A DNA stretch of 62,717 nt from a virus. Taxonomy: Duplodnaviria; Caudoviricetes. Below the pieces are notes generated by a model. It had not been told where the DNA came from and did no database searches. It saw only the letters and a program-made list of their open reading frames with translations. The stretch is taken from positions 1 to 62,717 of the IMG/VR virus record IMGVR_UViG_3300037509_000107; one strand, written 5' to 3'. Both the position numbers and the translations under genes were made by a program. This document shows positions 7,224 to 46,604 of this stretch, piece after piece (position 1 is the first letter of the stretch; every line of letters starts with the position of its first letter).

Positions 7224-7427
7224 ATGACGACGGACCTTGCGGTGCCGCGGCTCGCTTACAACCAGCGGGACGCCGCCGCCCTGCTCAGCGTGAGTGACCG
7301 GACGCTGCGGCGGTGGGAGGCGTCGGGCCTGGTGCGGTCCGTGACGGTCGACGGCGTGAAGCTGTACCCGCGGGCGGAGCTGGAGCGGTTGGTCAAGTTG
7401 CCGCCGGCGGGCGGCGTGGAGGCGTGA
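7224..7427 (+). CDS. xis: Excisionase-like HTH (MerR/HTH_17)
   Basis: AYNQRDAAALLSVSDRTLRRWEASG directly upstream of integrase. Confidence 0.8.
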   Translation: MTTDLAVPRLAYNQRDAAALLSVSDRTLRRWEASGLVRSVTVDGVKLYPRAELERLVKLPPAGGVEA

Positions 7428-9411: not shown

Positions 9412-9758
9412 CCTCCTTCCTCGATGGACCCGCGGCCGGCGTCGTGCTCGACCTGAGGCGGGCGCCGCTCTTCCTCCGCGCCGTTTGCGGCCCCGGCGGC
9501 GAGCCGTGGGACGCGCTCGACCAGCTCGACGACAGACCAACGCCGGCTGAGGTGGTTCACGTCTACCGGCGGGAGGGGGAACCGAGCCACCTGCACTTGC
9601 TGATCCGTGGCGCGCGGAGCGGGCGGCGGTCCGGCTACTACACGGTCGCCCGGTACCGGTACGTGGAGCCGCAGCCGCCGGCCGACCAGGTGCGGGACAC
9701 GGCGATCTGGCGGGCGTGGTGCGAGCAGGCGGCGAGTGCCGCGGGGGTGGCACGTTGA
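9408..9758 (+). CDS. Hypothetical protein
   Basis: Coupled ORF; FLDGPAAG...WDALDQLDD.P pattern. Confidence 0.65.
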   Translation: MTSFLDGPAAGVVLDLRRAPLFLRAVCGPGGEPWDALDQLDDRPTPAEVVHVYRREGEPSHLHLLIRGARSGRRSGYYTVARYRYVEPQPPADQVRDTAIWRAWCEQAASAAGVAR

Positions 9759-10339
9759 GCACGTACCCCCCGAGTCTGCTCTTCCCCGACCCGTCGACCG
9801 ATGTCACGGCCAGCCCGCCGGCGACCCTTATGACACCGGTCGACTCGGGCTGGCGTCACGTCGTCAGCTTCTTCGTCCCCGGCACCCCGCGCCCCGGCGG
9901 CTCGAAGACCGCCACCGTGATCCGCCGCAAGGGCGGTCAGATCGTCATGACCGCGGCGGGCCGGCCGCTGATCACCATGCGCGACGACGGCGGCGAGAAG
10001 ACCGCCGACTGGAAACGCAACGTCGCCTACTTCGCCCGCGGTTCTTATTCGTCCGACCCGATCCCCCGCGGCGTCCCGATCCGGCTGGAGGTGACGTTCG
10101 TCATGCCGCGGTGCGCCTCGCACTTTGGCACGGGCAAGAACGCAGGGCGACTGAAGGCCAGCGCGCCGGCGGAGCACGTCACCAAGCCGGACCTGAGCAA
10201 GATCACCCGGTCAACCGAAGACGCGCTCACGGGGATTATCTGGGCCGACGACGCGGCCATTTCGCTTCAGGTGCTGAGCAAGGTGTACGGGGCCAAGGTC
10301 GGTGCCCACATTGCTGTGAGCGTGAAAGAAAACGCCTGA
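9755..10339 (+). CDS. rusA: RusA-family Holliday junction resolvase
   Basis: FFVPGTPRPGGSK...KPDLSKITRSTEDALTGIIWADDA. Confidence 0.9.
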   Translation: MSTYPPSLLFPDPSTDVTASPPATLMTPVDSGWRHVVSFFVPGTPRPGGSKTATVIRRKGGQIVMTAAGRPLITMRDDGGEKTADWKRNVAYFARGSYSSDPIPRGVPIRLEVTFVMPRCASHFGTGKNAGRLKASAPAEHVTKPDLSKITRSTEDALTGIIWADDAAISLQVLSKVYGAKVGAHIAVSVKENA

Positions 10340-10452
10340 TTTTCGAGGGTTTTTTATGCTTTTGGTGGACTCGAAAGGTATGATGGGCGGACCGGGAACG
10401 GTGCTGGAAACACCGCCCCGGCCCATCAGCAGACCTTTACAGGAGGTCCACC
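10328..10452 (+). promoter_or_regulatory. Conserved endonuclease leader, copy 1
   Basis: GCCTGATTTTCGAGGGTTTTT box, ATGCTT-17-TATGAT, hairpin, GACCT/AGGAGGTC RBS hairpin. Confidence 0.8.
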
Positions 10453-11313
10453 TTGCCCACGCGCACCTTATCCCGTCCGCGCCGGCCGGACAAGCAGAAA
10501 GCCACCGACGCGCAGGTCATCGCCGCATACCAGAAGGCGGGCTCCGTCAAGGCGGCCGGCCGGTTGCTCGGCATCGGCGGCGGGTCGGTTCACGAGCGAT
10601 TGAAGAAGCTGGGCGTCGCGTGCCCGAAGAAGGCTCGGCCCTGGACCGCGGCGGAGGAAGCCACGATCCGCAAGTGCTACGCGCAGTACCGCGGCCGCGG
10701 GACGGTCAAGACGCTGGCCGCCCGGCTGGGCCGGGACTACAGCACACTCGCCACCAAGGCAAAGGAGATGGGGCTGTCCGCTCACCCCAAGGTGAAGCCC
10801 TTCCTGCGGTCGATCCCGAACGAGACTGCGGCCCGTCGATGGTTCGACCGGTTCAAGCGGTCGTCGCTCGTGCTGGCGCAGTTCTGTGCCAAGTTCAAGA
10901 TCAGCGACGACGCAATGCGGACGCACGTCGCTTCGCGGTGGCCCGACGAGTGGGATGCGGTGATCGAATCGAAGGCACCGCGGCAGACCAGGTACCGGCT
11001 CGGCCGGCACTTCGAGTATCGCACGAGGGACCTGCTGCGCGACGCCGGCTACTTCGTCATGCGGTCGCCGCGGTCGCTGTCGATTGTGGACCTCGTGGCC
11101 ATCAAGACCGGCCGAGTCGTGTTCATCCAGTGCAAGCGGTCCGGCGGCATCTCGTCAACGGACTGGAACAAGCTGTTCGATTTGGCCGCCTCTGTCGGAG
11201 CGGTGCCGGTCCTTGCCGAGTGCTCCACGGGCCGCGGTACCTGTCTCTGGCGAATGACCGGTCGAAAGGACGGCGTGAAGCGGGCGCAGCCCCGCGAATC
11301 GTTCTTGCCGTAA
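10453..11313 (+). CDS. HTH-containing PD-(D/E)XK endonuclease with Hjc-like C-terminal domain
   Basis: GRHFEYRTRDLL..AGYFVMRS..S.SIVDLVAIK...FIQCKR; N-terminal HTH/Myb-like repeats. Confidence 0.75.
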   Translation: MPTRTLSRPRRPDKQKATDAQVIAAYQKAGSVKAAGRLLGIGGGSVHERLKKLGVACPKKARPWTAAEEATIRKCYAQYRGRGTVKTLAARLGRDYSTLATKAKEMGLSAHPKVKPFLRSIPNETAARRWFDRFKRSSLVLAQFCAKFKISDDAMRTHVASRWPDEWDAVIESKAPRQTRYRLGRHFEYRTRDLLRDAGYFVMRSPRSLSIVDLVAIKTGRVVFIQCKRSGGISSTDWNKLFDLAASVGAVPVLAECSTGRGTCLWRMTGRKDGVKRAQPRESFLP

Positions 11314-11344
11314 CCAATCAGCCATTGCCGGCCGGAGGTGACGC

Positions 11345-11980
11345 ATGACCTCCGTCGGCTCTTCTTCCCTGTTTCTCGGCCGCACGGCCGACGGCTCGGC
11401 GTTCTGGTGCGAGGCTCGCGACGGCGACGCCGAGGGTTTCGCGCTCGCGCGACGTCACTACTCGGCGGACAAGAACCGGTCGCCGAAGCAGCGTCGGTTC
11501 GTTGGTGCGGGCGAGAGGATGGTCCTCATTACCCCGACCGGCGACGGCCTGCTGGTCTGGCGAAAGTTCATCGACGACAGCGGGCAGACCGGCGTCAACT
11601 GCGCGATCTACAGGTACGAACGTCGCGCGGCAGACGCACCTCTGGCGAGCCTGCTCCTGCTCGACGGTATGGCGCTGGCTTGGCGGAAGTGGCCGGGCGA
11701 GCGTTTCTACACCTACATCAATCCTCGCAAGGTCAAGTCGGCCAATCCCGGCTACTGCTTCAAAGCGGCCGGCTGGTCCCTCGTGCGCGGGGTTGATGGG
11801 AAGCCAGTGCTGACAAAGCGGCGGAGGCTGCTGGTGCTGGAAGCGATGCCCGACGCACTAACCGGCATCCTCTGGGCGGATGACGCGGCGATCAGCCGGC
11901 AGGTCGTCGAGAAGCGGTACGGGGATAAGACCGGCGCACACATCACCCTCAGCGTGAAGGAGGACCATGCCACGACTTGA
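11345..11980 (+). CDS. Mom-like DNA-modification acetyltransferase-fold protein, C-terminally fused to a RusA tail
   Basis: RRHYS..., TYINPRKVKSANPGYCFKAAGW; last 42 aa resemble the RusA C-terminus. Confidence 0.6.
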   Translation: MTSVGSSSLFLGRTADGSAFWCEARDGDAEGFALARRHYSADKNRSPKQRRFVGAGERMVLITPTGDGLLVWRKFIDDSGQTGVNCAIYRYERRAADAPLASLLLLDGMALAWRKWPGERFYTYINPRKVKSANPGYCFKAAGWSLVRGVDGKPVLTKRRRLLVLEAMPDALTGILWADDAAISRQVVEKRYGDKTGAHITLSVKEDHATT

Positions 11981-12038
11981 AGTGCTCATCGGAATGATCG
12001 CCTCGGGCACGCGTGAGGAAGCCTTACGAGGTGCGTGA
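11967..12038 (+). pseudogene. Relic 5' end of the P-loop kinase gene
   Basis: MPRLEVLIGMIASG vs MPRLEVLVGMVGSG at 13121; AGGAGG RBS; truncated at the Walker A lysine. Confidence 0.75.
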
Positions 12039-12235
12039 TGCAGAGCCTGTGGCGACAAGCGCTCGGCTACTCCCGCCTGCGGTGGTGGGTGATGTGCCAC
12101 CTGCCGGGCTGGCCGTGGAAGCGTTGCGTCGAGTGTGGCCGGCTGTTCCTGCGGCAAACCTGGTGGTGGCCCAACCCGTTCGAAGAGCACTGCTCGCGTG
12201 AGTGTGCCGACGCCGAACTGGATCGCCTTGGATAG
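12035..12235 (+). CDS. Small Cys/Trp-rich (Zn-finger-like) protein
   Basis: CVECG...HCSREC. Confidence 0.55.
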   Translation: MMQSLWRQALGYSRLRWWVMCHLPGWPWKRCVECGRLFLRQTWWWPNPFEEHCSRECADAELDRLG

Positions 12236-12241
12236 CCCCCG

Positions 12242-12565
12242 ATGTCCGACGACGAACCGACCCAGGCTGAGCTCGATGACGCGACCGTGGAGGACACGGT
12301 CCACTGTGACCTCTGCGGTGCGCCGTGGGTGCTCGGCGGCCACGGCGACGGCATCATCGTACAGCCCACGCAGGCCACATGGTGGGCACTTGGGGGGCAG
12401 TTGAAGCTCTGCACAGACTGCGCCGTCTACGTTTCGCGCGTGCTGAGGGATGAGCTTGCCGAGCGCGACGTCTGCGAACACGGCGTCCTCTGCGGCGACT
12501 GGTGCGAGCCCTGCAATGCGGCCCACAAGCAGGCTCTGATCGACAACGGTGTCGGAGGCGACTGA
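12242..12565 (+). CDS. Small Cys-rich protein
   Basis: CDLCG, CTDC, CEHG..CGDWCEPC. Confidence 0.55.
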   Translation: MSDDEPTQAELDDATVEDTVHCDLCGAPWVLGGHGDGIIVQPTQATWWALGGQLKLCTDCAVYVSRVLRDELAERDVCEHGVLCGDWCEPCNAAHKQALIDNGVGGD

Positions 12566-12581
12566 CGCGGCTGGTTTGTGG

Positions 12582-12710
12582 GAAATCGCCTGTTTTTCCG
12601 AGGGTTTTTGAATGCTGCTGGTGACCTCACAAGGTATGATGGGCGGGCCGGGAACGGTGGTGGAACACCGCTCCGCGGCCCAACTCAGCGACCTGGTTAG
12701 GAGGTCACCG
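12582..12710 (+). promoter_or_regulatory. Conserved endonuclease leader, copy 2
   Basis: GCCTGTTTTTCCGAGGGTTTTT, ATGCTG-17-TATGAT, hairpin, GACCT/AGGAGGTC. Confidence 0.8.
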
Positions 12711-13133
12711 ATGCCCGAGCACACCGTAGACGGTGCGCCCTGCGCCGTCAATTCCACGTTCACCCGATCCTGCTCGAAGTGCGGGGCTCTCATCCGGCAT
12801 ACCCGGCTGAACAACCGCAACAAGGCCGCCGCGCTGCGGATCTCGTACGTCGGCCACGACGGGGCGGCGCGCACCTACACGGCCGACTTCCTGGTCGATG
12901 GTTCGACGCTGGTTGAGATCAAACCGAAGAAGCTTCACGCGACGCCGACCGTCCTCTTGAAACGGGCGGCCGCTGAGGCGTTCTGCGCCGCGGCGGGGCT
13001 GACCTACGAACTTGTTGACCAGCCCCCGCTGACGGATGCCGAAGTCGCCTCCCTGCGCGACAGCGGCGCGATCAAGTTCACCGACCGCTACGAGCAGAAA
13101 TACCTTGAAAGGAGCACTCAATGCCACGGTTAG
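12711..13133 (+). CDS. TnsA-N-like PD-(D/E)XK endonuclease (possibly internally deleted)
   Basis: ISYV...RTYTADFLVDG..LVEIKP...K..AAEAFC...GLTYEL. Confidence 0.7.
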   Translation: MPEHTVDGAPCAVNSTFTRSCSKCGALIRHTRLNNRNKAAALRISYVGHDGAARTYTADFLVDGSTLVEIKPKKLHATPTVLLKRAAAEAFCAAAGLTYELVDQPPLTDAEVASLRDSGAIKFTDRYEQKYLERSTQCHG

Positions 13134-13675
13134 AGGTTTTGGTGGGGATGGTAGGAAGCGGGAAGTCCACCTACGCCCGCCGCCGCGCGGACGAGGGCGC
13201 GATCGTGATCAGCCACGACGACCTCACGCAGATGCTCCACGCCCGCTACCGGTACGAGCAGGTGCTCCGCGACCAGTACCGGGCGGCCGAGGAAAAGCTG
13301 GCCCACGTGTTCCTGTCGGCCGGCCGCGACGTGGTGATCGACCGCACGCACCTGACGCGGGAGAGCCGCAAGCGGTGGGTCGACTTCACGAAGTGGCCCA
13401 ACTTCGCACACGACCGAGTGCCGGTGATCGCCGCCGTCACCTTCCCGATCGAGGCCCCCGAGGTGCACGCCCGGCGCCGGGTCGAGTGCGACGCGCGCGG
13501 CCGCTCCTACGACGACTGGCTCCGGGTCGCGCACCACCACTACCAGCAGTCGGTCGACGAGCCGCTCCACGCGAAGGACGAGGGGTTCGACTGGATCGAA
13601 GGCAATCGGTGGCGGATGCCCGTCGACCGCGGCTGTGAAGCCCCGGCGGCAGTGGCGCTCGGGTGCGACCGGTGA
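13121..13675 (+). CDS. P-loop kinase (AAA_33 / polynucleotide kinase-like)
   Basis: VLVGMVGSGKSTYA, ISHDDL, DVVIDRTH. Confidence 0.85.
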   Translation: MPRLEVLVGMVGSGKSTYARRRADEGAIVISHDDLTQMLHARYRYEQVLRDQYRAAEEKLAHVFLSAGRDVVIDRTHLTRESRKRWVDFTKWPNFAHDRVPVIAAVTFPIEAPEVHARRRVECDARGRSYDDWLRVAHHHYQQSVDEPLHAKDEGFDWIEGNRWRMPVDRGCEAPAAVALGCDR

Positions 13676-13842
13676 CCCGCCCCGCCCGCGATCCACGCGA
13701 CCGGCTGACGATCACCCTCGTCCCGGTCGGCAAGGGCCCGCCGGCGGCCGTGCGGTTCCGGCGGGTGCTGAAACTGTTGCTGAGGGGGTTCGGGCTCCGT
13801 GCCAGTTGGCCGGAGCAAAAGACCACGCGAAAGGAGAAGTGA
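13672..13842 (+). CDS. Small basic protein (PPAAVRFRRVLKLLLRGFGLR)
   Basis: Not in ORF track; GTGA and TGATG coupling on both sides; paralog at 41280. Confidence 0.7.
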   Translation: MTRPARDPRDRLTITLVPVGKGPPAAVRFRRVLKLLLRGFGLRASWPEQKTTRKEK

Positions 13843-14369
13843 TGGCAGTCGTTTACGAACAAGCCGAGCCCGAGGTCCACCAGATGGCCCGGGAGATCCT
13901 CGAACAGTACCACCCGGAACTGCGGTTGCCCGACGGCACCCACCCCACGATCGCGATCCTGATGGCCAGCGTCGGCGCCGACAGCGACGACTACCCGCTG
14001 AAGGACGGCCCGTACCGCGTCCTGGGCAAGATCAAAGCCGTGCCCTACGTCCAGCGCGTCGACGGCCGCCGGGACGCCGAGCTGCTGCTCGACGCCGGGC
14101 ACTGGAACGGGCTGACCGACCGTCGGCAACGCGCGCTCCTCGACCACTTCATCACCTGCCTGGAGTTCAACACGGGCGCCGACTCGTGCGTGAAGACCGA
14201 CGAGTTCGGCCGGCCCAAGCTCCGGGAGCGGGCGTGCGACTGGTACCTGAAGGGCTTCGGGTCGATCGCCGCGCGGTACGGCGAGGACGCGCCCGAGGTG
14301 GTCGCCGCCCAAGCCTTCCAGAAGCAGTACGGGAAGGTCGCGATGCCGGGGGACAAGCTGTTCGCGTAG
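13842..14369 (+). CDS. Phage metallopeptidase-like protein with degenerate HExxH
   Basis: W..LTDRRQRALLDHFITCL...RPKLR...F..IAARYG; AGGAG RBS. Confidence 0.6.
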   Translation: MAVVYEQAEPEVHQMAREILEQYHPELRLPDGTHPTIAILMASVGADSDDYPLKDGPYRVLGKIKAVPYVQRVDGRRDAELLLDAGHWNGLTDRRQRALLDHFITCLEFNTGADSCVKTDEFGRPKLRERACDWYLKGFGSIAARYGEDAPEVVAAQAFQKQYGKVAMPGDKLFA

Positions 14370-14415
14370 GCGGTCGGAGAAAGGCAACGGGGGCCGGGTC
14401 GTTCTGGAGGCTGCA

Positions 14416-15057
14416 ATGGATATCGAGGATCTGAAGGCGAGGGTTCGCCCGACGGTAGACCAGCACCTGGAACAGGAACGGGCTCGCTTGGACTACACAG
14501 TTAAGCGGGCGTGGGATCTCGGGAAAAGGGTTTGCGAGAGTGAGATCGAGGTGACCCTTCTCGCGGCCTGGATGGTGTGCAGCGAGACGAGTGACCACGT
14601 CCGCAAACGCCGGTCACAAATCAACGTGCGTGTACACGGGTACTGCGACCGTGACGACTACCTGCGTCCGCGACCCATCGGCCGCAAGGATGTCATCTGT
14701 GGCATCTTCACACGCGAGGTCCTGATTCCCCAATTCAAGGTCGGAGTCTATCGGGCAGACTTCGCCATTCAGCGATCCTCCCGCTACGGGGCCAAGCTGA
14801 GCCCTCGCGTACTCGTGGAGTGCGACGGCCACGACTTCCACGAGCGAACCAAGGAGCAGGCGCAGCGGGACAAGGCGCGCGATCGGGAGCTCCAAGCCGT
14901 CGGCTATTACGTCCTGCGCTTCACCGGCTCGGAGATCTGGAACGACGCCGCCGGGTGCGTCGAGCAGATCGACGCGTTCCTCGACTCCCACCTGATGGCC
15001 CCGGACCTGGCGGTGATCGACGCCGCTATCGAGGCGGAAGCGGCGGCGGCTCACTGA
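14416..15057 (+). CDS. DUF559/Vsr-like PD-(D/E)XK endonuclease
   Basis: CESEIE, PQFKVGVYRADF, VECDGHDFHE...RDKARDREL...GYYVLRFTGSEI. Confidence 0.85.
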   Translation: MDIEDLKARVRPTVDQHLEQERARLDYTVKRAWDLGKRVCESEIEVTLLAAWMVCSETSDHVRKRRSQINVRVHGYCDRDDYLRPRPIGRKDVICGIFTREVLIPQFKVGVYRADFAIQRSSRYGAKLSPRVLVECDGHDFHERTKEQAQRDKARDRELQAVGYYVLRFTGSEIWNDAAGCVEQIDAFLDSHLMAPDLAVIDAAIEAEAAAAH

Positions 15058-15065
15058 GGACGGTC

Positions 15066-15824
15066 ATGGGCAAGCTCCCCTCCATCCAGTTCTACCCCGG
15101 CGACTGGCTCCGGGACCCGGTCTCCACCTGCTCGCTCGCGGCGCAGGGGCTATGGCTGCGGATGCTCCTGGTGGCACACGACTCGGCACCCTACGGCTAC
15201 CTCGTTCACAAGGGCGCGCCTATTCCCCCGGAGCAGATCGCACGACGCTGCGGCTGCACGCTGGCGGAATACACGACTCTTCTGGCGGAGCTAGACGGCG
15301 TAGGCGTCCCGGAGCGCACACCCACAGGAGTCATCTTCTCACGGCGCATGGTCCGCGACGCCAAAAAGCGGGCGGAGGCAAGGAGATACGGCAAGCTCGG
15401 AGGCAACCCGCATCTTAAGGACGAGTCCCACGGGGGGGATAAGGGGGGGGTTAACCCCCCCCTGAAGAGGAAGAAGAAGATGAAGGGGAAGTCTTCGGGA
15501 GAAGGGGGAGCGGGGGAAGAGGTCGCGTTCTTTGCCCTAATCCCGGACTCGCTCCGCACCCCCAAGTTCCTCGACGCGTGGGCGGCGTGGATTGAGCACC
15601 GCCGCCAGCGGCGACCGGCGTACACGGAGGTCTCCGCGCGCCGGGCGTTGCCCAAACTGGCCGAGGAAGGGCCGGCTGCCGCCATCGCGCGGATCGACCG
15701 GTCAATCGTCAACGGCTACCAGGGCCTGTTTTTCCACGGCGAAAACGGCGCGGCCAACGGGCACCGGCCCACCGCGCGCGAGCAACGCGACGCGCTGATC
15801 GAGCAGGCGCTGGACGAGGAATGA
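15066..15824 (+). CDS. Phage replication initiator-like protein
   Basis: PSIQFYPGDWL..., W..WIEHR, SIVNGYQGLF; central low-complexity ori-like tract. Confidence 0.75.
   Translation: MGKLPSIQFYPGDWLRDPVSTCSLAAQGLWLRMLLVAHDSAPYGYLVHKGAPIPPEQIARRCGCTLAEYTTLLAELDGVGVPERTPTGVIFSRRMVRDAKKRAEARRYGKLGGNPHLKDESHGGDKGGVNPPLKRKKKMKGKSSGEGGAGEEVAFFALIPDSLRTPKFLDAWAAWIEHRRQRRPAYTEVSARRALPKLAEEGPAAAIARIDRSIVNGYQGLFFHGENGAANGHRPTAREQRDALIEQALDEE
15443..15462. repeat. G8-TTAA-C8 perfect palindrome, candidate origin element
   Basis: GGGGGGGGTTAACCCCCCCC preceded by GGGGGGGATAA and followed by a GAAGA purine run. Confidence 0.55.
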
Positions 15825-15827
15825 CCC

Positions 15828-16364
15828 ATGAGCCCGGAAGAAGCAAAGGGCCTCGCGAAGTGGATCGCCAAGCTGTTCACCGGCCAGGTGACGGCCGAGC
15901 AGGCCAAGCTCCTGCGCGACGAGCTGCTGCCGTTCGGGTTGGCGGCGGCGAAGGAGGCGATCAAGAACCACCGCACCTCGCACGAGTTCCTCAGCATCCC
16001 GCAACTGCTCGAAGGGTGCCGGGCGGCCGAGCGGGGCGCGACGTCGCAGCCGACCAGCACGACCCAGCGCGAGGGCTCCCGCGCCGACGTCTACCGCCGG
16101 CAGAACCCTCGGCTCGCCGCGTGCGCGACGGACCTGGAGGTCGTGCTCCGGGTGGCGCGGATCCAGTGGCACGCGTCCCGGCAGCGGCCGAGCTACCGGT
16201 CGAAGATCGAGACCGAGCTGCGGAACGACGAGGCGATGCGGGCGCTGCCCGACGAGGTGCCGGACGCGTGGACCGCCTACGTGTTCGAGGCCAGTGCCGG
16301 CGACTTCGACCTGGCGCTGGAGGACCTGCGGAGCGTCGGGGCGGTTGTAGGGGCGACCGCCTGA
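15828..16364 (+). CDS. Hypothetical protein (possible helicase loader/inhibitor by position)
   Basis: Directly follows initiator; GAGG RBS. Confidence 0.55.
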   Translation: MSPEEAKGLAKWIAKLFTGQVTAEQAKLLRDELLPFGLAAAKEAIKNHRTSHEFLSIPQLLEGCRAAERGATSQPTSTTQREGSRADVYRRQNPRLAACATDLEVVLRVARIQWHASRQRPSYRSKIETELRNDEAMRALPDEVPDAWTAYVFEASAGDFDLALEDLRSVGAVVGATA

Positions 16365-16382
16365 CCCGAAAGCGAGGACGCC

Positions 16383-16703
16383 ATGGGAGCCCGGAAACGA
16401 CCCAGGCACGTAATGACGCGGACCGGCGAGCGGCCGCCGCCCGGCCTGTCGGGCGACGTGATCGCGCTCCTGATCTTCCGCCGGGCCGAGGCGCTGTACG
16501 TGGCCAAGCTGGAGCCGACGCGCGAGGCGGCGGCCCGGCGCGCCGTCGGCGACGTCGAGCAGACGCTGCACGCAGTCACGTCGTCGCCGGCGGCCGTGCA
16601 GTTGGCCGAGTGGCTTGCGGAGACAACCAACAAGCGGTGGGCGCGCGACGTGGCGAAGTGGCGGGTGGGCGAGTTCCTCCTGGAACTGGAGCGGGTGGCA
16701 TGA
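16383..16703 (+). CDS. Hypothetical protein
   Basis: GAGG RBS, ATGA coupling. Confidence 0.6.
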   Translation: MGARKRPRHVMTRTGERPPPGLSGDVIALLIFRRAEALYVAKLEPTREAAARRAVGDVEQTLHAVTSSPAAVQLAEWLAETTNKRWARDVAKWRVGEFLLELERVA

Positions 16704-17050
16704 CGCGGCTGATCAACAACGCGGGGCTGAGCGGCGGCGAGTACGCGGCGTTCGGCCGCCTCGCCGGCGTGCTCCGCCAGGTCGGGCCGAGGCACGTCGC
16801 GCGGGTGACGTGCGAAGCGCCGGGCATGTACCGGGCGACAGTCTACCGACGGCCGCGGAAGTCGCTCCGGCTGGACCTCCCGCCGTCATACACGCTCGAC
16901 CCGGGGCTCACGGTGATCGGCGACTGGCCGACGGAAGAGGCCGCGGTCGAGGCGGCGAGCGACATGGTCGCGGGCCTGGGCAAGCCGAGGGTGTGTAACG
17001 GCGAGGATCTGGACGAGGTGCGACGGCTTCTCTCGGCCAACCAACTATGA
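16700..17050 (+). CDS. Hypothetical protein
   Basis: ATGA overlaps at both ends. Confidence 0.6.
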   Translation: MTRLINNAGLSGGEYAAFGRLAGVLRQVGPRHVARVTCEAPGMYRATVYRRPRKSLRLDLPPSYTLDPGLTVIGDWPTEEAAVEAASDMVAGLGKPRVCNGEDLDEVRRLLSANQL

Positions 17051-17811
17051 CCCCCTACTACGCCGACAACCTCGTGACGCTGTACCACGGGCATTGCCTT
17101 GATGTGCTGCCGCGCGTGCCCGACGCCGTGGCCGACCTGATCGTAACCGACCCACCCTTCTCTGTGTCGGTGGCCGGCGTCGGCCGGTGGGAGACGCGGT
17201 ACGGGCGGACGGATGATCTGGACTTCTTCGACGGCGACACCGACTGGAAGGCGATGACGGCGACCGTCGTCAACGCGGTCGCCATCGCCGTCCCGAAGCT
17301 AAAGCCGCACGGGTCACTCTACGTCTACTGCGGCCACCGCCAGTTCGGGCCGCTGGTCGCTCGCCTTGAGGACGACGGGTGGAGCACGCGGTTCCTCGTC
17401 TGGGCAAAGGAACACCCGGTGCCGCCCGCGCCGGGGTCCGGCTGGCCATCTGCCGCCGAGCTTTGTGTCTACGCCTACCGCGAGGGCCGGCGATGGACGC
17501 CGAAATCCTTCCGCGAGACGCCCCGATCGAACGTGCTGACGGCAGACAGCTACCGCCACGGCATGCCGGGGAAGACAGGCCACCCGACGCAGAAGCCGCT
17601 TCCGACGATCGAGCCACTGATCCTCGTCAGCAGCGAGCCGGGAGACTTAGTGCTGGACATGTTCGCGGGGAGCGGGACGACGCTGGTGTGCGCCAAGGCG
17701 GCGGGCCGTCGGGCCATCGGGATCGAGGTCAATGAAGAGTATTGCGAGATGGCCGCGAACCGGCTGCGACAGGGCGTGCTGTTCGGCGCGGAAAGTGTGG
17801 AAACTGCCTGA
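17047..17811 (+). CDS. N6-adenine/N4-cytosine DNA methyltransferase (beta class)
   Basis: TDPPF, HPTQKP, VLDMFAGSGTT. Confidence 0.92.
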   Translation: MTPYYADNLVTLYHGHCLDVLPRVPDAVADLIVTDPPFSVSVAGVGRWETRYGRTDDLDFFDGDTDWKAMTATVVNAVAIAVPKLKPHGSLYVYCGHRQFGPLVARLEDDGWSTRFLVWAKEHPVPPAPGSGWPSAAELCVYAYREGRRWTPKSFRETPRSNVLTADSYRHGMPGKTGHPTQKPLPTIEPLILVSSEPGDLVLDMFAGSGTTLVCAKAAGRRAIGIEVNEEYCEMAANRLRQGVLFGAESVETA

Positions 17812-17928
17812 TTTTCCGAGGGTTTTTCGATGCTAAATGGGGACGGATATGGTATGGTGGGCGACGCTGGAACGGGGTTCGTGGCCCCGCCCCAGCGCCA
17901 TCCGAACGACCTGTTAAGGAGGTCATCC
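17800..17928 (+). promoter_or_regulatory. Conserved endonuclease leader, copy 3
   Basis: GCCTGATTTTCCGAGGGTTTTT, ATGCTA-17-TATGGT, hairpin, GACCT/AGGAGGTC. Confidence 0.8.
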
Positions 17929-18408
17929 GTGCCCACCGAGCCCACCCTATTTGACGCTGCGCCTGCGGTCAACACGAAGCGGTGCAACCGCTGCGGCCTG
18001 TCGAAGCCGACTACGGAGTTCATTCGCAACGCCCGCATGAAGGACGGCCTGCTCAACCAGTGCAAGGCGTGCCGCCAGTTGGCTCAGAGTAAGCGGGAGA
18101 GGATTAGAACTCCCGAGACGAGGGCCGCGGAACGCCAATACCTTCGCGACTACCGCCGCCGCAATCCGGAGGCGAAGCGGTTGAACAATCTGCGGTACCA
18201 GCAGAGGTACCCGGATAAAGCCCGAGCGCACCGGCTACTGAATGAGGCGGTGCTGCGGGGGGAGGTCGAGCGGAAGCCTTGTGAGGTCTGCGGCTCCACA
18301 AACGCCCAAGGTCACCACGACGACTACTCAAAGCCGCTGGAGGTGCGGTGGCTGTGCCCCGTGCATCATGCGGCAGAGCACCCCCGCGCGCAACAGAAAC
18401 CACACTGA
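17929..18408 (+). CDS. HNH-like endonuclease with N-terminal Zn finger
   Basis: KRCNRCG..KP..EF...CKAC; PCEVCG...GHHDDYSKPLEVRWLCPVHH. Confidence 0.85.
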   Translation: MPTEPTLFDAAPAVNTKRCNRCGLSKPTTEFIRNARMKDGLLNQCKACRQLAQSKRERIRTPETRAAERQYLRDYRRRNPEAKRLNNLRYQQRYPDKARAHRLLNEAVLRGEVERKPCEVCGSTNAQGHHDDYSKPLEVRWLCPVHHAAEHPRAQQKPH

Positions 18409-18421
18409 AAGGAGACAGGCG

Positions 18422-20407
18422 ATGACGGCGACTCTGACGAGGAAGCGGAAGGCGAAGGGGGCCGGCAAAAAAGCGGGGGCGGCCGGATCGACGGCCGCCC
18501 CGAGCGCACACAAACCTACCGGCGAGACTGTAGCCGACGCGGGCGGCCCGGTCGAGCGGCCGCCGCGGCTGAGGTGGAGCGGGAGCTTCGACGGATGCTG
18601 GTACGCCGACACGACGTCGGGCGTCTGGAGCGGTGCCGGCGACTTCACGGCGCAGTACCACATCGACCGCCAGCCGGACGGGAAGCGGTACGTCGTCACG
18701 CTCGACCACCCGCTCGCCGAGCAGCTCGGTAGCAGCGGCGTGACGGAGGCGACGCTCGAAGACGCACAGGCGTGGTGCGAGCACCAGGAGGCAAAGCTCC
18801 TGGAGCCGCAACTGGCGTGGCGGGTCGACACCGACCGGCCCGGCGTTTACCGGGCGGAGAACATGGCCGGCGTCAAAGTCCCCGACGGCGGGGCGCGTGC
18901 CGAGTGGGTGATCGCCGAGAACAACGGGCGGCTGTCGGTCGGTTGGCACGTCCCGCTCCACCCTCGCGCGGCCGACGTGCCGGCCGGCCCGTTCGACAAC
19001 CTCGCCGACGCCAAGGCGTGGGCCGAGCGGCAGGACCGGTACGTCACGTCCCGGCAGGCCGCCGCCCCGCCGCGCCCGCGGCTGAGGTGGCAGGAGGGCG
19101 CGGACCCGGGCGAGACGTTCGCCCCGAACACGGCGGGGATCGAGGCTGAGGGGGATCTGCTGGCGGAGTTCGTCGTCACCCGCCGCGGCGGCCCGGACGC
19201 CGGCGTGTTCGTTTACGACGTGCTAGCCACCGACCCGGTCCTGATGCCGAAGGGTGGGCCGCCCGAGTCGTTCGCGACGCTCGACGCGGCGCGGGCCTGG
19301 TGCGAGCGGAGGAATGCGGAGTTGGTCGCCACAGCGAAGCCCGACACCGCGGCCGCACCCGAGGCGCCGGCGGCGGCGGCAACGTCGCCGACGCCAGTCG
19401 CGGATCCGCGGCCCGCCCCGCCCCCCTCGCCCGGCGGCGGCGTCGAGCTGGAGGCGATCCGGCGGCTCAACCAGATCCGCCACCTCGGCCGGCTGATCGA
19501 GGACAAGCGGCAGGAGATCGGCCGGCAGGAGACCAAGGTCGCCGAGGTCAAGGCCAACCTGGACCGGGAGCGCAAGCGGGCGAACGAACTGAACCGGCAG
19601 CGCGACGAGCTGATCAACGAGCTGGAGACGCTGGCGCTGGGGAAGAGCACCGAGCGACTGTTTCCCCCGGTCGCCGACGCTGCCCCAGCGGCGGTCCCCA
19701 CGCCCGCCGCCGACGGCAAGGCCCCCGCCGCCCCCGCCGGATCCTCCGCCGCGCCAGCGGGCGACGCAGGCCCGGCCAAGCCGGCTCCGGCGGACGACAC
19801 CGCCTGGCGGGACGTGCCGCTCGACCAGGTGATCACCGACGCGAAGGCGTGCAAGAAGCTGGTCGACGCCGGGATCAAGACGTTCGGCGACCTCGAGGAC
19901 TGGCGGGCCGGCGGCTGCACCGACCCGAAGGTGACCGGGTTCGGCGGTGTCGACACCAAGGGCCGGAAGCTGGTCGACGAGGCGGCGGTCAACTACTGGC
20001 AGCGCAACCCGCGGCCCAAGCCGGCCGACGCCCCGCCGCCGGCCGGCCAGATCGCCGCCCCGACCCCGGACAAGATCGACCTCGCCGGCTGCGGCTGGAT
20101 CGCGTTCAAGTCCGAGGGCGGGGCCGAGACCTGGTACCAGCACAACGTCGTCGTCGGGCCGGTGCGGGCGGGCCGGCTCGGGCAATGGTCCGGTCCGTTC
20201 CCCGACCGGAAGGCCGCGGCGCGGGAGGCCGGCAAGGAGATCGAGCAGTGGCTCCGGTCGGTCTCGGGCGACCTGCGCGGCCAGCCGGTCGAGGACGCGC
20301 GGCGCGTGATGGCGGTCGCGATCGGGCTCCAGCCGCTGCGGCTGGCACCGAAGGGCGAGGCGGCGAAGGCGGCGGGCAAGGCGAAGGCGGAGCCGGTCGG
20401 CGTGTGA
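18422..20407 (+). CDS. Large modular protein: three ~85-aa repeats, coiled coil, HhH/alpha-CTD-like domain
   Basis: Repeats begin P(R/Q)L(R/A)W and end (T/N)L.(D/A)A.AW.E; KKLVDAGIKTFGDL...VTGFG. Confidence 0.7.
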   Translation: MTATLTRKRKAKGAGKKAGAAGSTAAPSAHKPTGETVADAGGPVERPPRLRWSGSFDGCWYADTTSGVWSGAGDFTAQYHIDRQPDGKRYVVTLDHPLAEQLGSSGVTEATLEDAQAWCEHQEAKLLEPQLAWRVDTDRPGVYRAENMAGVKVPDGGARAEWVIAENNGRLSVGWHVPLHPRAADVPAGPFDNLADAKAWAERQDRYVTSRQAAAPPRPRLRWQEGADPGETFAPNTAGIEAEGDLLAEFVVTRRGGPDAGVFVYDVLATDPVLMPKGGPPESFATLDAARAWCERRNAELVATAKPDTAAAPEAPAAAATSPTPVADPRPAPPPSPGGGVELEAIRRLNQIRHLGRLIEDKRQEIGRQETKVAEVKANLDRERKRANELNRQRDELINELETLALGKSTERLFPPVADAAPAAVPTPAADGKAPAAPAGSSAAPAGDAGPAKPAPADDTAWRDVPLDQVITDAKACKKLVDAGIKTFGDLEDWRAGGCTDPKVTGFGGVDTKGRKLVDEAAVNYWQRNPRPKPADAPPPAGQIAAPTPDKIDLAGCGWIAFKSEGGAETWYQHNVVVGPVRAGRLGQWSGPFPDRKAAAREAGKEIEQWLRSVSGDLRGQPVEDARRVMAVAIGLQPLRLAPKGEAAKAAGKAKAEPVGV

Positions 20408-20466
20408 CCAGCGAGGCAGGCCCCGGCCCGGTCGGCGGGCCGGGATCAGGGATCGGGAGTTCCACG

Positions 20467-21915
20467 ATGATTGCGACGTTGACCAGAGACATCAGCCGCG
20501 ACCCCGCGAGGCACGAGGACTACGCGGCCTTCATCCGCCGCAAGTCCCAGCTCGGCGGCGACGGCGGGTTCGCCCCGGTGTGGGTGCCGGACTTCCTGTT
20601 CGACTTCCAGCGGGCGCTGATCGAGTGGGCGTGCCGTAAGGGGCGGGCGGCGATCTTCGCCGACTGCGGGCTGGGCAAGACCCCCATGCAGCTCGTGTGG
20701 GCGGAGAACGTGCGGCGTAGGACCGACAAGCCGGTCCTGGTGATCACGCCGCTGGCCGTCTCCTCGCAGACGGTGCGCGAGGGCGAGAAGTTCGGGATCG
20801 AGTGCCACCAGTCCAGGGACGGCGCGGTCCACCCCGGGATCACGGTCACGAACTACGAGCAGTTGCACCGCTTCGACCCGTCGGCCTTCGCCGGCGCCGT
20901 CGCCGACGAGTCCAGTGCGATCAAGGCGTTCGACGGCAAGCGCCGCAAGGAGGTGACCCGCTTCGTGTCGAAGATGCAGTACCGCCTGCTGGCCACCGCC
21001 ACCCCGTCGCCGAACGACTACGTCGAACTCGGGACCTCGTCGGAGTGCCTCGGCGTGATGACCCAGTCGGACATGCTCGGCTTCTTCTTCCGGCCGACGG
21101 AGAACATGCGGCACACCGTCCTCAAGGAGGACGACTTCTGGAACCGGCTGAAGTGGCACTTCAAGCCCCACTCGGAGCAGCCGTTCTGGCGGTGGGTGAC
21201 GTCCTGGTCCCGCGCGCTGCGCAGCCCGGCGGACCTCGGGTTCGACGCCAGCCGCTTCGAGCTGCCCCCCTTGGAGTACCGCGAGCACGTCCTCGACGTG
21301 CCGTTCATCCCGGACGGCGAGCTGTTCCCGCGGCCGGCGATCTCCCTGCACGAGCAAAGGAAGGAGCGGCGGCGGACCGTCCGCGAGCGGTGCGAGCGGG
21401 TCCGGCAGCTCGTGACGGGCCATGACCGCCCAGCGGTGATCTGGTGCCACTACAACGACGAGGGCGACTGCCTCGAGGAGATCATCCCCGGCGCCGTCCA
21501 GGTCGCCGGCCGGCACAGCGACGACGAGAAGGAGGTCCGGCTCAACGCCTTCACGCTCGGCCAGGCCCGCGTGCTGGTCACCAAGCCGAAGATCGGGGCG
21601 TGGGGGCTCAACTGGCAGCACTGCGGCGACGTCACGTGCTTCCCGAGTCACAGCTACGAGCAGTTCTATCAGGCGGTGCGGCGATGCTGGCGGTACGGCC
21701 GCCGCGGCCCGGTCACCGTGGACATCGTCAGCGCCAAGGGCGAGTCGGGCGTCGTCGGCGGCCTGCGGCGGAAGCAGGAGAAGGCGGACCGGATGTTCGC
21801 CTCCCTGGTGGCACACATGAACAACTCGATCGAGATGTTTTCGACCGACGGGCACACCCGGCCGATCAGCGTGCCGGCGTGGCTTGGCCAGTCGGAAAGG
21901 AGCGAGCAACAGTGA
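20467..21915 (+). CDS. SNF2/DEAD-like helicase
   Basis: AIFADCGLGKT, VADESS, ATATPSPND, WGLNWQHC, QAVRRCWRYG. Confidence 0.9.
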   Translation: MIATLTRDISRDPARHEDYAAFIRRKSQLGGDGGFAPVWVPDFLFDFQRALIEWACRKGRAAIFADCGLGKTPMQLVWAENVRRRTDKPVLVITPLAVSSQTVREGEKFGIECHQSRDGAVHPGITVTNYEQLHRFDPSAFAGAVADESSAIKAFDGKRRKEVTRFVSKMQYRLLATATPSPNDYVELGTSSECLGVMTQSDMLGFFFRPTENMRHTVLKEDDFWNRLKWHFKPHSEQPFWRWVTSWSRALRSPADLGFDASRFELPPLEYREHVLDVPFIPDGELFPRPAISLHEQRKERRRTVRERCERVRQLVTGHDRPAVIWCHYNDEGDCLEEIIPGAVQVAGRHSDDEKEVRLNAFTLGQARVLVTKPKIGAWGLNWQHCGDVTCFPSHSYEQFYQAVRRCWRYGRRGPVTVDIVSAKGESGVVGGLRRKQEKADRMFASLVAHMNNSIEMFSTDGHTRPISVPAWLGQSERSEQQ

Positions 21916-22982
21916 TCATCGACCAGGAAATCCGCGACCGGTACTCCCTGTACCACGCCGACTGCATGGAGGTCATGCCGGAGCTGCCGGCCAAGTCGAT
22001 CGACCTGTCGGTCTACTCCCCGCCGTTCCCGGAGCTGTACCAGTACAGCAACGACCCGCGGGACATGACCAACTGCACGAGCTACGACGAGTCGATCGAG
22101 CAGTACGGGTACGTCGTCCGGCAGATCGCCCGGCTGACCAAACCCGGCCGGCTGTCGTGCGTCCACTGCACCGACCTGAAGCGCGGGCAGATCTACCAGC
22201 GCGACTTCCCCGGCGACGTCATCCGCGTCCATGAGGACGCCGGCATGCACTTCTTCTGCCGGATCACCGTCTGGAAGGACCCGTGGCACTTCGCCCGGCG
22301 GACCCGGATGGTGACGCTGATGCACAAGACGTTGACGGAGGATTCGGCGCTAAGCCGTGTGGCACCGCCCGACTACCTGCTGGTGTTCAAGAAGGCGGGG
22401 GTCAACGCCGAGCCGATTACCCATGAGAAGGGCCTGCGGCGGTACGCCGGGGCCACGCCGATCCCACCGCAGCTCGTGCGGGACTTCGCCGAGTACCGCG
22501 GGGACCCGCGAAAGAACCTGATGTCGCACTGGATCTGGCGGCAGTACGCGAGCCCGGTGTGGATGGACGTCCGGCGGAAGCGGCTGCTGCCGTACGCCGA
22601 CGCGAAGGAGAACCCCGAGGAGAAGCACGTCTGCCCCCTCCAGCTCGACGTGATCGACCGCTGCCTCACCCTCTGGTCGAACCCGGGCGACGTCGTGCTG
22701 ACCCCGTTCATGGGCGTCGGGTCGGAGGTGTACTGCGCGGTCGTACACGAGCGGCGGGCGATCGGCGTGGAGCTGAAGGCGAGCTACTACCGGCAGGCGG
22801 TCCAGAACGTGCGCGTCGCGGTCGCCGGCGGATACCCCGCCGAGCAGTTCTCGCTCGACGCCGAGCCGGGCGCCGGTGGTGACGATGAGGACGACGCCGC
22901 CGAGGACCTGCCGGTGACCGCCGAAGCCGCGACCAGCAAGCCAGCCGCAGCCAAGCGAACAAGGCGGTCTGCGAAGTGCTGA
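21912..22982 (+). CDS. N4-cytosine/N6-adenine DNA methyltransferase
   Basis: YSPPF, HVCPLQLD, VLTPFMGVGSE. Confidence 0.9.
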   Translation: MIIDQEIRDRYSLYHADCMEVMPELPAKSIDLSVYSPPFPELYQYSNDPRDMTNCTSYDESIEQYGYVVRQIARLTKPGRLSCVHCTDLKRGQIYQRDFPGDVIRVHEDAGMHFFCRITVWKDPWHFARRTRMVTLMHKTLTEDSALSRVAPPDYLLVFKKAGVNAEPITHEKGLRRYAGATPIPPQLVRDFAEYRGDPRKNLMSHWIWRQYASPVWMDVRRKRLLPYADAKENPEEKHVCPLQLDVIDRCLTLWSNPGDVVLTPFMGVGSEVYCAVVHERRAIGVELKASYYRQAVQNVRVAVAGGYPAEQFSLDAEPGAGGDDEDDAAEDLPVTAEAATSKPAAAKRTRRSAKC

Positions 22983-23039
22983 TCATCAACGGCCCGAGCT
23001 ACGCGACCTGAGCAACCGGCCGCGCGGAGGATCTGACCC

Positions 23040-23342
23040 ATGGCACCCGGAGACTGGTACCTGCTCGGCGGGATGCTCGTCCTGCTGGCCACGTTCTTCC
23101 TCGCCGGCCTGGCGGTCGGCGACCACCGCGCGACCCGGAGCCGCGACGACTGGCGTGGCCGGGCGCAGAAGCTGGCGGCGACCAACCTGGAGCTGCACGC
23201 GTTCATCGGCGGCCGCGACGGCACGATCGAGCGGTTGCGGGAGGAAATCGTTGACCTGACGCACCAGCTACGCGCGGCGAAGGGCGAGGGGCCGGCGAAG
23301 GCTGCTGGCTTCTGGAACCGGATGAACGAGCGGAAGGCATGA
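23040..23342 (+). CDS. Membrane-anchored coiled-coil protein
   Basis: GGAGG RBS; N-terminal TM helix. Confidence 0.65.
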   Translation: MAPGDWYLLGGMLVLLATFFLAGLAVGDHRATRSRDDWRGRAQKLAATNLELHAFIGGRDGTIERLREEIVDLTHQLRAAKGEGPAKAAGFWNRMNERKA

Positions 23343-24034
23343 CCCCCTACTACACCGACAACCTCGTGACGCTGTACCACGGCGACTGCCGGGACATCCT
23401 CCCCTGGCTCACCGTGGCCGGCGATGTCGCGGTCGCGTCGGACCCGCCGTACGGGATCGGCCACCGGCACAGCGGTAAGGGGCGGCACGCGCACCACCAC
23501 GCCGAGCGGGGCCGGCGGAACGTGAACCTCGTCGCCGGGGACGACGAGCCGTTCGACCCGTCCCACCTGCTGGCGATGTTCGACAACGTGCTGCTATGGG
23601 GCGCGAACCACTACGCGAAGCGACTACCCGACGGCGGGCGGTGGCTGGCGTGGGACAAGTTGGCCGGGATGAAGGTAGAGGACTCGTTCAGCGACGTGGA
23701 GTTCGCGTGGCACAGCCGCGGGAAGGCGTCGCGGATCATCAACTTCGCGTGGAAGGGCGTCGCCTCGGTCAAGGCCGGCGAAGACAACGGCCGACGGTGG
23801 CACCCGACACAGAAGCCGGTCGGCGTGATGGTCTGGTCGATCGGCCAAACCGGCGTTGCGCCGGGCGGGACGATCATCGATCCGTACCTCGGCAGCGGAA
23901 CGACCGCCGTCGCGGCACGCCGTACCGGGCATCGGTTCATCGGGATTGAGATGGATGAGGGCCACCTGCGGACGGCGGTTCGGCGGCTCGCGCAGGGCGT
24001 GCTGGACTTCGGCGAAAGTGCGAAAAGTGCCTGA
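23339..24034 (+). CDS. N6-adenine DNA methyltransferase (beta class)
   Basis: SDPPYG, HPTQKP, IIDPYLGSGTT. Confidence 0.92.
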   Translation: MTPYYTDNLVTLYHGDCRDILPWLTVAGDVAVASDPPYGIGHRHSGKGRHAHHHAERGRRNVNLVAGDDEPFDPSHLLAMFDNVLLWGANHYAKRLPDGGRWLAWDKLAGMKVEDSFSDVEFAWHSRGKASRIINFAWKGVASVKAGEDNGRRWHPTQKPVGVMVWSIGQTGVAPGGTIIDPYLGSGTTAVAARRTGHRFIGIEMDEGHLRTAVRRLAQGVLDFGESAKSA

Positions 24035-24154
24035 TTTTCCGGGGATTCTATGACGCTGGAAATGGTGACGGATGTTAGAATGAGCGAGGCCGCGGCGGGG
24101 TGGAGCCCGACGCGACCTCTAACCACAAGCGGACCTGTTGAGGAGGCCCACGTC
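24022..24154 (+). promoter_or_regulatory. Conserved endonuclease leader, copy 4 (diverged)
   Basis: GCCTGATTTTCCGGGG, ACGCTG-17-TAGAAT, hairpin, GGACCT/AGGAGGCCC. Confidence 0.7.
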
Positions 24155-46556: not shown

Positions 46557-46585
46557 AAGGTATCCCATCCGTTGGGTTTCCGCAA
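46557..46585 (-). promoter_or_regulatory. Leftward promoter with operator-like palindrome in the spacer
   Basis: TTGCGG-17-TACCTT; spacer contains CCCA-ACGGA-TGGG. Confidence 0.55.
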
Positions 46586-46604
46586 GCAGAATCTGGAAAG
46601 CCGC

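Follow-up and report, generated by a model that had tools for sequence, protein, structure and literature searches.

The stretch of DNA analysed here (the window) is an IMG/VR provirus record of the class Caudoviricetes, IMGVR_UViG_3300037509_000107, taken at its full length of 62.7 kb (62,717 nucleotides, nt; ~70% GC), with RecT-like, terminase, portal, and tyrosine integrase genes. Its early region is crowded with DNA-handling genes: two RusA-like genes, three N6/N4 methylases, a DUF559 nuclease, and a HerA-like ATPase. A leader cassette is found in exactly four copies in the window, each directly upstream of a nuclease gene (Table 1), and this cassette, the RNA that it may encode, and its relatives are the subject of this analysis.

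The box pattern GCCTGWTTTTC(N)GRGGRTT at the upstream end of the cassette occurs four times in the window, always on the plus strand (at 10334, 12588, 17806, and 24029); shuffling 100 times gives an expectation of 0.05, and none of the shuffles gave four occurrences. An nhmmer profile of the four copies retrieves only these copies from the window (E-values 1e-29 to 1e-37), the next match (E 0.023) being a reverse-strand hairpin, and the family covariance model R3 described below, run with filters off, finds the same four only, at 55–65 bits, with the next full-length match at 16.4 bits. An earlier note, made from the letters of this DNA alone, had proposed four leaders of common geometry, and its geometric details are all borne out. 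The distance from the box to a sense -10-like hexamer is 45, 47, 47, and 47 nt in copies 1–4; the hexamers are TATGAT (10379–84), TATGAT (12635–40), TATGGT (17853–58), and TAGAAT (24076–81); each copy has an imperfect GC hairpin; and GACCT-N4-AGGAGG(T/C)C, which contains the Shine-Dalgarno (SD) sequence, is seen at 10432–48, 12690–706, 17908–24, and 24132–48. The TGA stop codon of the upstream gene lies inside the box in copies 1, 3, and 4, while copy 2 has TGT there and its upstream open reading frame (ORF) ends at 12565. The extent of ~125 nt given in that note holds as a repeat, but the repeat is longer, ~175 nt, with similarity reaching about position +45 of each ORF and then stopping. The downstream genes are Hjc-like, TnsA-like, endonuclease VII/HNH-like, and HNH; their products show no pairwise BLASTP similarity beyond chance, with proteins 3 and 4 both touching phrog_1035. 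The upstream box is absent from all relatives and looks private to the phage of the window.

Table 1. Cassettes, predicted antisense features, and adjoining genes of the window; limits of the cassette copies are approximate, and lengths of proteins are in amino acids (aa).
Feature	Position	Strand	Remarks
Cassette copy 1	10322–10493	+	Box, sense -10-like TATGAT, long hairpin, SD hairpin, TTG start, first ~14 codons
Cassette copy 2	12576–12751	+	Not fused to upstream stop; box TGT in place of TGA
Cassette copy 3	17795–17972	+	17862–17936 matches RF00043 model positions 1–75, 26.5 bits
Cassette copy 4	24018–24196	+	Most divergent; 24085–24162 matches RF00043 model positions 1–75, 23.3 bits
Upstream box copy 1, GCCTGATTTTCGAGGGTTT	10334–10352	+	Also 12588–12606, 17806–17824, 24029–24047
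Nuclease 1, 286 aa	10453–11313	+	C-terminal part Hjc-like (PF01870), N-terminal part regulator-like (phrog_323)
Nuclease 2, 140 aa	12711–13133	+	TnsA-like N-terminal endonuclease domain (PF08722; phrog_15427)
Nuclease 3, 159 aa	17929–18408	+	phrog_2340 (endonuclease) match; endonuclease VII/HNH-like matches
Nuclease 4, 249 aa	24155–24904	+	HNH endonuclease (PF01844)
Antisense promoter-like site, copy 1	10465–10493	-	TTGTCC-17-TAAGGT, in ORF codons 5–14
Antisense promoter-like site, copy 2	12723–12751	-	TTGACG-17-TACGGT
Antisense promoter-like site, copy 3	17944–17972	-	TTGACC-17-TAGGGT
Antisense promoter-like site, copy 4	24168–24196	-	CTGTCG-17-TAGAAT
Predicted antisense RNA 1, ~80 nt	10379–10458	-	Two stem-loops; -45.7 kcal/mol, z -4.85, 0/200 shuffles as good
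Predicted antisense RNA 2, ~80 nt	12637–12716	-	-51.9 kcal/mol, z -6.08
Predicted antisense RNA 3, ~82 nt	17856–17937	-	-56.9 kcal/mol, z -7.33
Predicted antisense RNA 4, ~83 nt	24079–24161	-	-45.4 kcal/mol, z -5.35; linker GGUUAG
RusA-like resolvase gene	9716–10339	+	TGA falls within box 1
N6/N4 DNA methylase gene	17047–17811	+	TGA falls within box 3
N6/N4 DNA methylase gene	23339–24034	+	Paralogue of 17047–17811; TGA falls within box 4

The methylases preceding copies 3 and 4 are paralogues (31% identity, E 4e-26), and the last codons of both belong to the stretch that these two copies have in common. The second RusA-like gene (11345–11980) has the same C-terminal ...SVKE(N/D) as the first and no cassette after it; since this end is common to both genes and only the first is followed by a cassette, the left junction of copy 1 is placed just before GCCTGA.

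Literal patterns built on the box are uninformative in the search for relatives. The exact box pattern gives 21 loci in IMG/VR, none homologous on inspection; the combined box and SD pattern gives no loci in IMG/VR and 11 in species-representative genomes, where the inspected Streptomyces locus (L031) is not homologous and the other ten, from metagenome-assembled genomes of unrelated phyla and from Geotalea, were taken as chance from their source titles. Cultured phages show no match to the region, to one leader, or to a 721-aa ORF of the window by megablast, blastn, and tblastn; single-protein searches with this ORF and with the terminase yield no related loci, and the 721-aa protein has one weak, uninformative match among 401 genomes spread evenly over the one phylum that contains Streptomyces. 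In these searches, no close relative of the phage came to light. Relatives were then sought through the conserved ATPase adjoining copy 4, which retrieves 1462 proteins at E<=1e-10 (the closest with 55–60% identity); 80 viral and 80 metagenome loci were scanned. A first nhmmer pass over the viral loci reveals nothing convincing, and an nhmmer search over the metagenome loci gives one match, L148 (E 7e-6). This element has a consensus promoter, TTGACA-16-TAAAAT, a hairpin with compensating changes, and the same GACCUGUUAAGGAGG and AUGGCU as in the window; it is flanked by a C5 methylase gene and by an HNH gene, whose protein is unrelated to that of the window outside the HNH motif. Scanning IMG/VR with an SD-hairpin motif adds three members (L204, L205, and L210) among 10 loci, and a motif of the inner stem and SD retrieves 13 loci, ~1 of them estimated by chance, of which 12 are new and all have the same anatomy.

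Sixteen sequences went into the family covariance model R3. As MAFFT aligned the leaders with a wrong hairpin structure, the covariance models were seeded from one self-aligned sequence. R3 recovers the held-out members L229, L220, and L218 at 30–34 bits. Among the loci already collected, to which its scans were limited, it finds L110, L118, L116, L077, and L093 (80 viral loci); L148, L175, and L185 (80 metagenome loci), L185 having the coordinates and score of L093 and looking like the same sequence; and a single match with the same anatomy in a 12-Mb Streptomyces genome. Borderline matches at 18–19.5 bits (L076, L054, L090, which equals L184, and L137) were not counted as members, and two motif finds, L080 and L208, are not confirmed by the single-sequence model R2. 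R2 also finds no element in 44 whole viral records of ATPase relatives; later R3 members were within the set scanned with it (L077; and L110, L116, L118, and L093 among the 80 loci), so the blank result reflects low sensitivity. By BLASTN, the leader of L224 has only chance-level matches in phages, and one leader touches 16 plasmid records. Three of them were inspected: in Burkholderia, the match follows a CopG gene; in Cupriavidus, it precedes a DNA methyltransferase; and in Streptomyces, it precedes a small ORF. Judged by sequence, relatives are present in other phage contigs, in plasmids, and in a Streptomyces chromosome.

At Rfam gathering thresholds, only one tRNA is reported in the window, and HEARO or other Rfam families as the identity of the element were set aside on this ground; CsrA-type GGA loops were rejected as well, the loop sequence not being conserved in the alignment. 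At E-value thresholds, model RF00043 (Plasmid_R1162, R1162-like plasmid antisense RNA) aligns over all of its 75 positions (1–75), on the mRNA-sense strand, with five elements: L222 (36.7 bits, E 0.0068), L226 (32.3 bits), L212, which is the L210 element (29.5 bits), and copies 3 (E 5e-4) and 4 (E 0.0026) of the window. The full-length order of hairpin, UAACC linker, SD hairpin, and start codon is present in all five matches, and the RF00043 consensus as printed (hairpin, CCUAACCAccAac, SD hairpin, AAUGGCUac) has the same anatomy as the family. AUGGCUAC is presumably the start of RSF1010 repA. The earlier suggestion of an undescribed family does not stand, given this full-length, sub-threshold relationship to the RepX antisense locus of R1162/RSF1010. 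RepX, according to PMC8136791, is a 75-nt antisense RNA lying over the ribosome-binding site (RBS) and start codon of repA-repC in the IncQ plasmids R1162/RSF1010; it has two stem-loops and a GUUA spacer, is FinP-like, and its mutations raise plasmid copy number. The comparison with RepX was made through the RF00043 model and the published description of the locus. Common to both are the order of GC hairpin, CCUAACCA linker (GUUA in the antisense RNA), SD hairpin, and AUGGCU start; the complement of the family linker CCUAACC is GGUUAGG, which contains GUUA. The predicted antisense RNAs of the window, at ~80 nt, would have two stem-loops over the RBS and start codon, as PMC8136791 describes for RepX. 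Unlike RepX, which regulates the repA helicase gene of the IncQ repA-repC operon, the family precedes nuclease genes in the window and HNH genes, Rha genes, or small ORFs in its relatives; it is carried by phages and other plasmids with 52–71% GC; one genome holds four diverged copies; and the window copies have the extra upstream box and lack a U-tail.

The earlier note had called for a covariance-model check of a structured RNA, and this check shows that the long hairpin covaries, chiefly in its outer stem. In the alignment of 16 sequences, 93.9% of cells pair, compared to 79.7% in shuffles, both-side changes are seen in 10 of the 17 pairs, and none of 500 shuffles reaches any of the measures; slid controls give at most 0.036 vs. 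0.318. Six of the seven outer-stem pairs covary, this stem being unconstrained by any retrieval pattern.

Several features point to the minus strand. A TAnnnT hexamer on this strand starts at ORF nt +13 to +16 in 12 of the 21 members and at +8 to +16 in 17, compared to a rate of 0.0035 per position within the same ORFs (binomial 1e-17 and 1e-22, respectively). Together with the sites in Table 1, promoter-like arrangements are seen in relatives as TTGACC-17-GATAAT (L224) and TTGCCG-17-TAAACT (L222), and these sites put the predicted antisense 5' end at about +6 to +9. A conserved antisense -10-like hexamer in the first codons would explain the ~15 first codons that unrelated ORFs have in common. 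The folds of the four predicted antisense RNAs are not reached by any of 200 shuffles; in the first of them, stem-loop SLI is complementary to the SD region with the start codon, and SLII to the long hairpin. When both strands are folded over the same coordinates, the antisense one is the more stable in 20 of the 21 members, by 8.7 kcal/mol on average, and sense leader z-scores are -1.73, -3.21, -2.54, and +0.04 for copies 1–4, vs. -4.9 to -7.3 for the antisense RNAs. Among the cells of the 17 modelled pairs that are not Watson–Crick, 13 are A·C, which reads as G·U on the opposite strand, three are G·U, and three are other combinations. The lower-GC relatives L222 and L224 have U-rich antisense 3' tails (CUUAUUUU and GUUUUUUA, respectively). 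The promoter signal, fold energy, A·C excess, and U-tails favour the minus strand as the putative functional RNA.

We regard it as reasonably probable that each copy is a self-contained, portable cis-antisense translation brake of the RepX/FinP type. On the sense strand, a promoter-like site would lie by a leader composed of the long GC hairpin, a short linker, a 5-bp hairpin with a very strong SD sequence, and the start codon. The antisense promoter in codons 5–14 of the nuclease gene would fire back over the start codon and SD sequence, yielding a two-stem-loop RNA of ~80 nt that ends at the long hairpin. This RNA would pair with its own leader by loop–loop contacts, cover the RBS and start codon, and keep nuclease translation low, by analogy with the action of RepX on repA and of FinP on traJ. 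As its amount would track gene dosage, the brake might act both in the lysogen and during multiplication of the phage genome. We infer the firing of either promoter, the existence of the antisense RNA, and the repression from these signals. Both loops differ among all four predicted antisense RNAs, hence each of them would probably control only its own gene. The sense promoter is plausible, with consensus-like sites in L148, L110, and L216 and TAnnnT in all four window copies, and is not universal in the family.

Some observations weigh against the antisense brake. All RF00043 scores (23–37 bits) are under the 55-bit gathering score, and copies 1 and 2 have no RF00043 match at E up to 10; thus, by model score, the element is a distant relative of RF00043, not a member. 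A sigma-70 consensus scan of positions 9000–26000 reveals no promoters on either strand, the antisense promoters having been called by the looser TAnnnT criterion and position, and four of the 21 members (L210, L215, L221, and L175) have no AnnnTA in the first 39 nt. The antisense RNAs of the window show no U-tract after the hairpin (CAUCAUA, CAUCA, none after CCCACC, and GCUCAUU). No RNA sequencing run was found to contain the window sequence, which was met in one DNA metagenome run only. The upstream box is left unexplained by this model. The SD hairpin hardly varies, with three of the four core pairs invariant, and the counted alignment, A12, was fitted to the model. Twelve members came from a search pattern in which the inner stem, GACCT, and AGGAGG were fixed, and, as all members share ancestry, they are less independent than the binomial and shuffle figures imply.

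The same signals may also be read on the sense strand only, as the earlier note did: a promoter and a structured 5' untranslated region, with the 5' hairpin stabilising the mRNA and the GACCU/AGGUC hairpin (with GGGC/GCCC pairing at the start codon in copies 1–3) partly hiding the RBS in the T4 manner, and no antisense RNA. Good sense promoters just upstream of relatives (TTGACA-16-TAAAAT in L148, TTGACA-17-TAGAAT in L110, and TTGACA-17-TAGATT in L216) agree with it, as do the TAnnnT beside the hairpin, kept in all four window copies, the compensatory variants of the SD hairpin (CACCU/AGGUG in plasmid members, AGCCU/AGGCU in L110 and L118), and the minimum-free-energy folds of copies 1–3, which pair GGGC with the start region. 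However, the sense folds are weak by the z-scores given above, the energy difference is in favour of the other strand in nearly all members, and so is the 13:3 excess of A·C over G·U. Conservation ~45 nt into unrelated ORFs and the fixed TAnnnT there are left without an account, L219, L222, and L224 have no evident sense promoter, and a 5-bp hairpin would be a weak block for a 9-nt SD sequence. With the antisense promoter-like signal in the ORF starts added to the fold comparison, a sense hairpin that hides the RBS is the weaker reading, and we consider it unlikely that the sense strand alone accounts for the element.

Two further explanations leave out translational control by an antisense RNA. 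The long hairpin might mainly act as a boundary insulator at which transcripts are terminated or processed between genes (a terminator or an RNase III-type site, on one or both strands), with the rest being a strong RBS that travels with inserted genes. It lies directly 3' of the upstream stop codon in L219, L222, and L224, minus-strand U-runs follow it in L222 and L224, and separate sites of a hairpin plus T-run are seen just upstream in L205 and L210; yet the window copies have no U-tracts on either side, and the conserved linker, the RF00043 likeness through the start codon, and the in-ORF hexamer all stay unexplained, which makes an insulator quite improbable. The inverted repeats might also be a recombination or homing site at the DNA level, a cruciform or a recognition sequence for insertion or exchange of nuclease genes, with no role of RNA. 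In this case, one would point to the switch of cargo close to the start codon between L218 and L220, to the junction defined by the second RusA-like gene, with the SVKE C-terminus of the first and no cassette, and to several cargo proteins being structure-specific nucleases. A cruciform, however, predicts no strand bias, while 13 A·C vs. three G·U cells and the energy asymmetry speak for RNA that is single-stranded and of one polarity; the likeness is to a locus with a proven antisense RNA (PMC8136791), and the 3' ends of the nuclease genes, when searched, revealed no right-hand repeat. We hold this last explanation to be very improbable.

The antisense brake can also be set against other known systems. 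FinP and RepX are alike in length and fold, with about 50% identity, according to PMC8136791. The FinP/traJ leader of F-like plasmids resembles the model proposed here in having a two-stem-loop antisense RNA over the target RBS, and by BLASTN the L222 leader matches 38 nt of a plasmid region with TraJ annotation at 86.8% identity; unlike in that system, there is no match to the Rfam FinP or traJ families at E up to 5 in six sources, and the FinO/ProQ domain (PF04352) has no matches in the window. The free-standing homing endonuclease genes of the T4 type (mobE, I-TevI) have RBS-sequestering hairpins. As in mobE, a nuclease gene here has its own expression signals and an SD sequence inside a local hairpin, GACCU/AGGUC of 5 bp in copies 1–3, with an A·C mismatch in copy 4, the helix being short and nearly invariant; unlike there, a single sequence family stands before unrelated genes and occurs in plasmids as well, and an antisense transcript fits the evidence better than a hairpin acting purely in cis. 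Antisense RNAs also occur in restriction–modification systems such as EcoRI. The order of methylase, control element, and nuclease at copies 3 and 4 is similar, and a small antisense RNA would likewise temper the nuclease; in contrast, copies 1 and 2 follow no methylase, and the methylase/HNH pairs here are only candidate restriction–modification systems.

The genes behind the cassette were tallied for 17 viral or metagenome elements outside the window that have an assigned ORF, none of them picked by the downstream gene; L116, L077, and L093, with no ORF assigned, are outside the tally. An HNH-type endonuclease follows the element in seven of the 17 (L148, L204, L205, L215, and L223 by Pfam; L210 by BLASTP to L205, E 2e-10; L225 by likeness to L223), Rha regulators follow two (L222 and L224), a 265-aa protein with a weak recombinase-domain match follows L218, and small ORFs of 56–86 aa follow the remaining seven, with no Pfam match in the five scanned (L118 and L175 being outside that scan). 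By these counts, nucleases thus seem strongly over-represented behind the element yet not obligatory, and the nuclease-specific placement supposed earlier does not hold, as Rha regulators and small ORFs also follow the element. Conservation is much higher in the leader than in the proteins that follow: the leaders of L218 and L220 are >90% identical up to the ATG, as read off the alignment, and their ORFs give no BLASTP alignment. This agrees with the earlier idea of a portable regulatory cassette with interchangeable cargo. The companion idea of a mobile family that transposes as a unit, for which terminal repeats, a target duplication, or a repeated right-hand border would speak, is not supported: in a search for repeats, the 3' ends of the four nuclease genes have no sequence in common.

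Some members have features of their own. At L116 (1675–1756) and L077 (9624–9693), both at about 33–35 bits, the hairpin and an ACC-rich linker have no recognisable SD sequence or ORF after them and may be stand-alone RNA variants; in L116, a near-consensus promoter is just upstream of the element. In L205 (4631–5290), the cassette and its HNH_3 gene are seemingly opposite in strand to the flanking ORFs, according to a six-frame ORF list with unannotated neighbours, and a hairpin with a T-run is immediately upstream of the cassette. The provirus that has a cassette before a Rha gene in L222 also contains an int-alpA RNA (RF02996; 12655–12719, minus strand; 41.8 vs. gathering 35.8 bits). The downstream ORFs of L216, L110, and L118 (62–86 aa) are alike by eye: L110 and L118 have the N-terminus M-A-x-S-T-L-P-V-F-S, and L216 and L110 have in common the C-terminal ...ATVH.L......C..HF.EV..., with no Pfam match (L118 being outside the scan).

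In the neighbourhood of the window copies, the two RusA-like genes have only their last ~55 residues in common (58% identity), their N-terminal parts being unrelated, and the RusA Pfam match of the second gene is weak (E 4.5e-4). Three N6/N4 DNA methylase genes are within 7 kb (17047–17811, 21444–22982, and 23339–24034); two of them, paralogous, are each followed by a cassette and an HNH-type nuclease, a layout that resembles a restriction–modification pair. A fifth nuclease-type gene of the same region, MTES_1575/DUF559 and Vsr-like (14416–15057), has no cassette copy. GC content is 0.65–0.67 at 10000–16000 and 24000–26000, compared to 0.70–0.73 elsewhere in the window, and the ORFs of nucleases 2 and 3 are under the cut-off of 0.82 for GC content at third codon positions (GC3), which most window genes pass. 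The 721-aa ORF, with no Pfam match, contains three direct 34-nt repeats ~250–280 nt apart (18749–19307), suggesting an internally repeated protein. Farther away, a tRNA-Met (CAT) gene (1194–1265) is ~6 kb from the integrase gene (7313–8914), an ORF of 2398 aa (46572–53768) is in the structural region, and a strong GC hairpin at 2704–2778 (GGGAGGGGGCGGG...CCCCGCCCCCTCCC), with a weak match to model R1, is unrelated to the cassette family and may be a terminator.

How free-standing phage nucleases and homing endonucleases are prevented from harming the phage or host genome is known mainly from T4-type phages, which use cis hairpins and late promoters. In a full-text literature search, with most subscription journals outside its coverage, no description of RepX-like modules before phage endonucleases was found. 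A wider picture, which we offer as speculative and rather doubtful, is that of a cross-phylum family of portable antisense "governor" cassettes, each comprising a sense promoter, a target leader, and the first ~15 codons with an antisense promoter, which would move between plasmids and phages and would have been repeatedly captured by selfish or dangerous genes (homing endonucleases, other nucleases, Rha). The four orthogonal copies would then give each nuclease its own dosage-sensing brake, and their antisense RNAs might even silence in trans the matching nuclease of a superinfecting relative; this would be an RNA-based layer of phage–phage conflict. If the antisense brake itself is real, a plasmid-style countertranscript switch would restrain nucleases in high-GC soil phages, and the same ~80-nt module, placed before widely differing cargo, would be common to phages, plasmids, and a Streptomyces chromosome. 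RF00043, now confined to a few IncQ plasmids, would then become a broad family of regulators of mobile elements. The cassettes would also provide natural sets of antisense/target pairs that are related and probably orthogonal, as well as a specific example of a regulatory element reaching into the coding sequence of the gene under its control.

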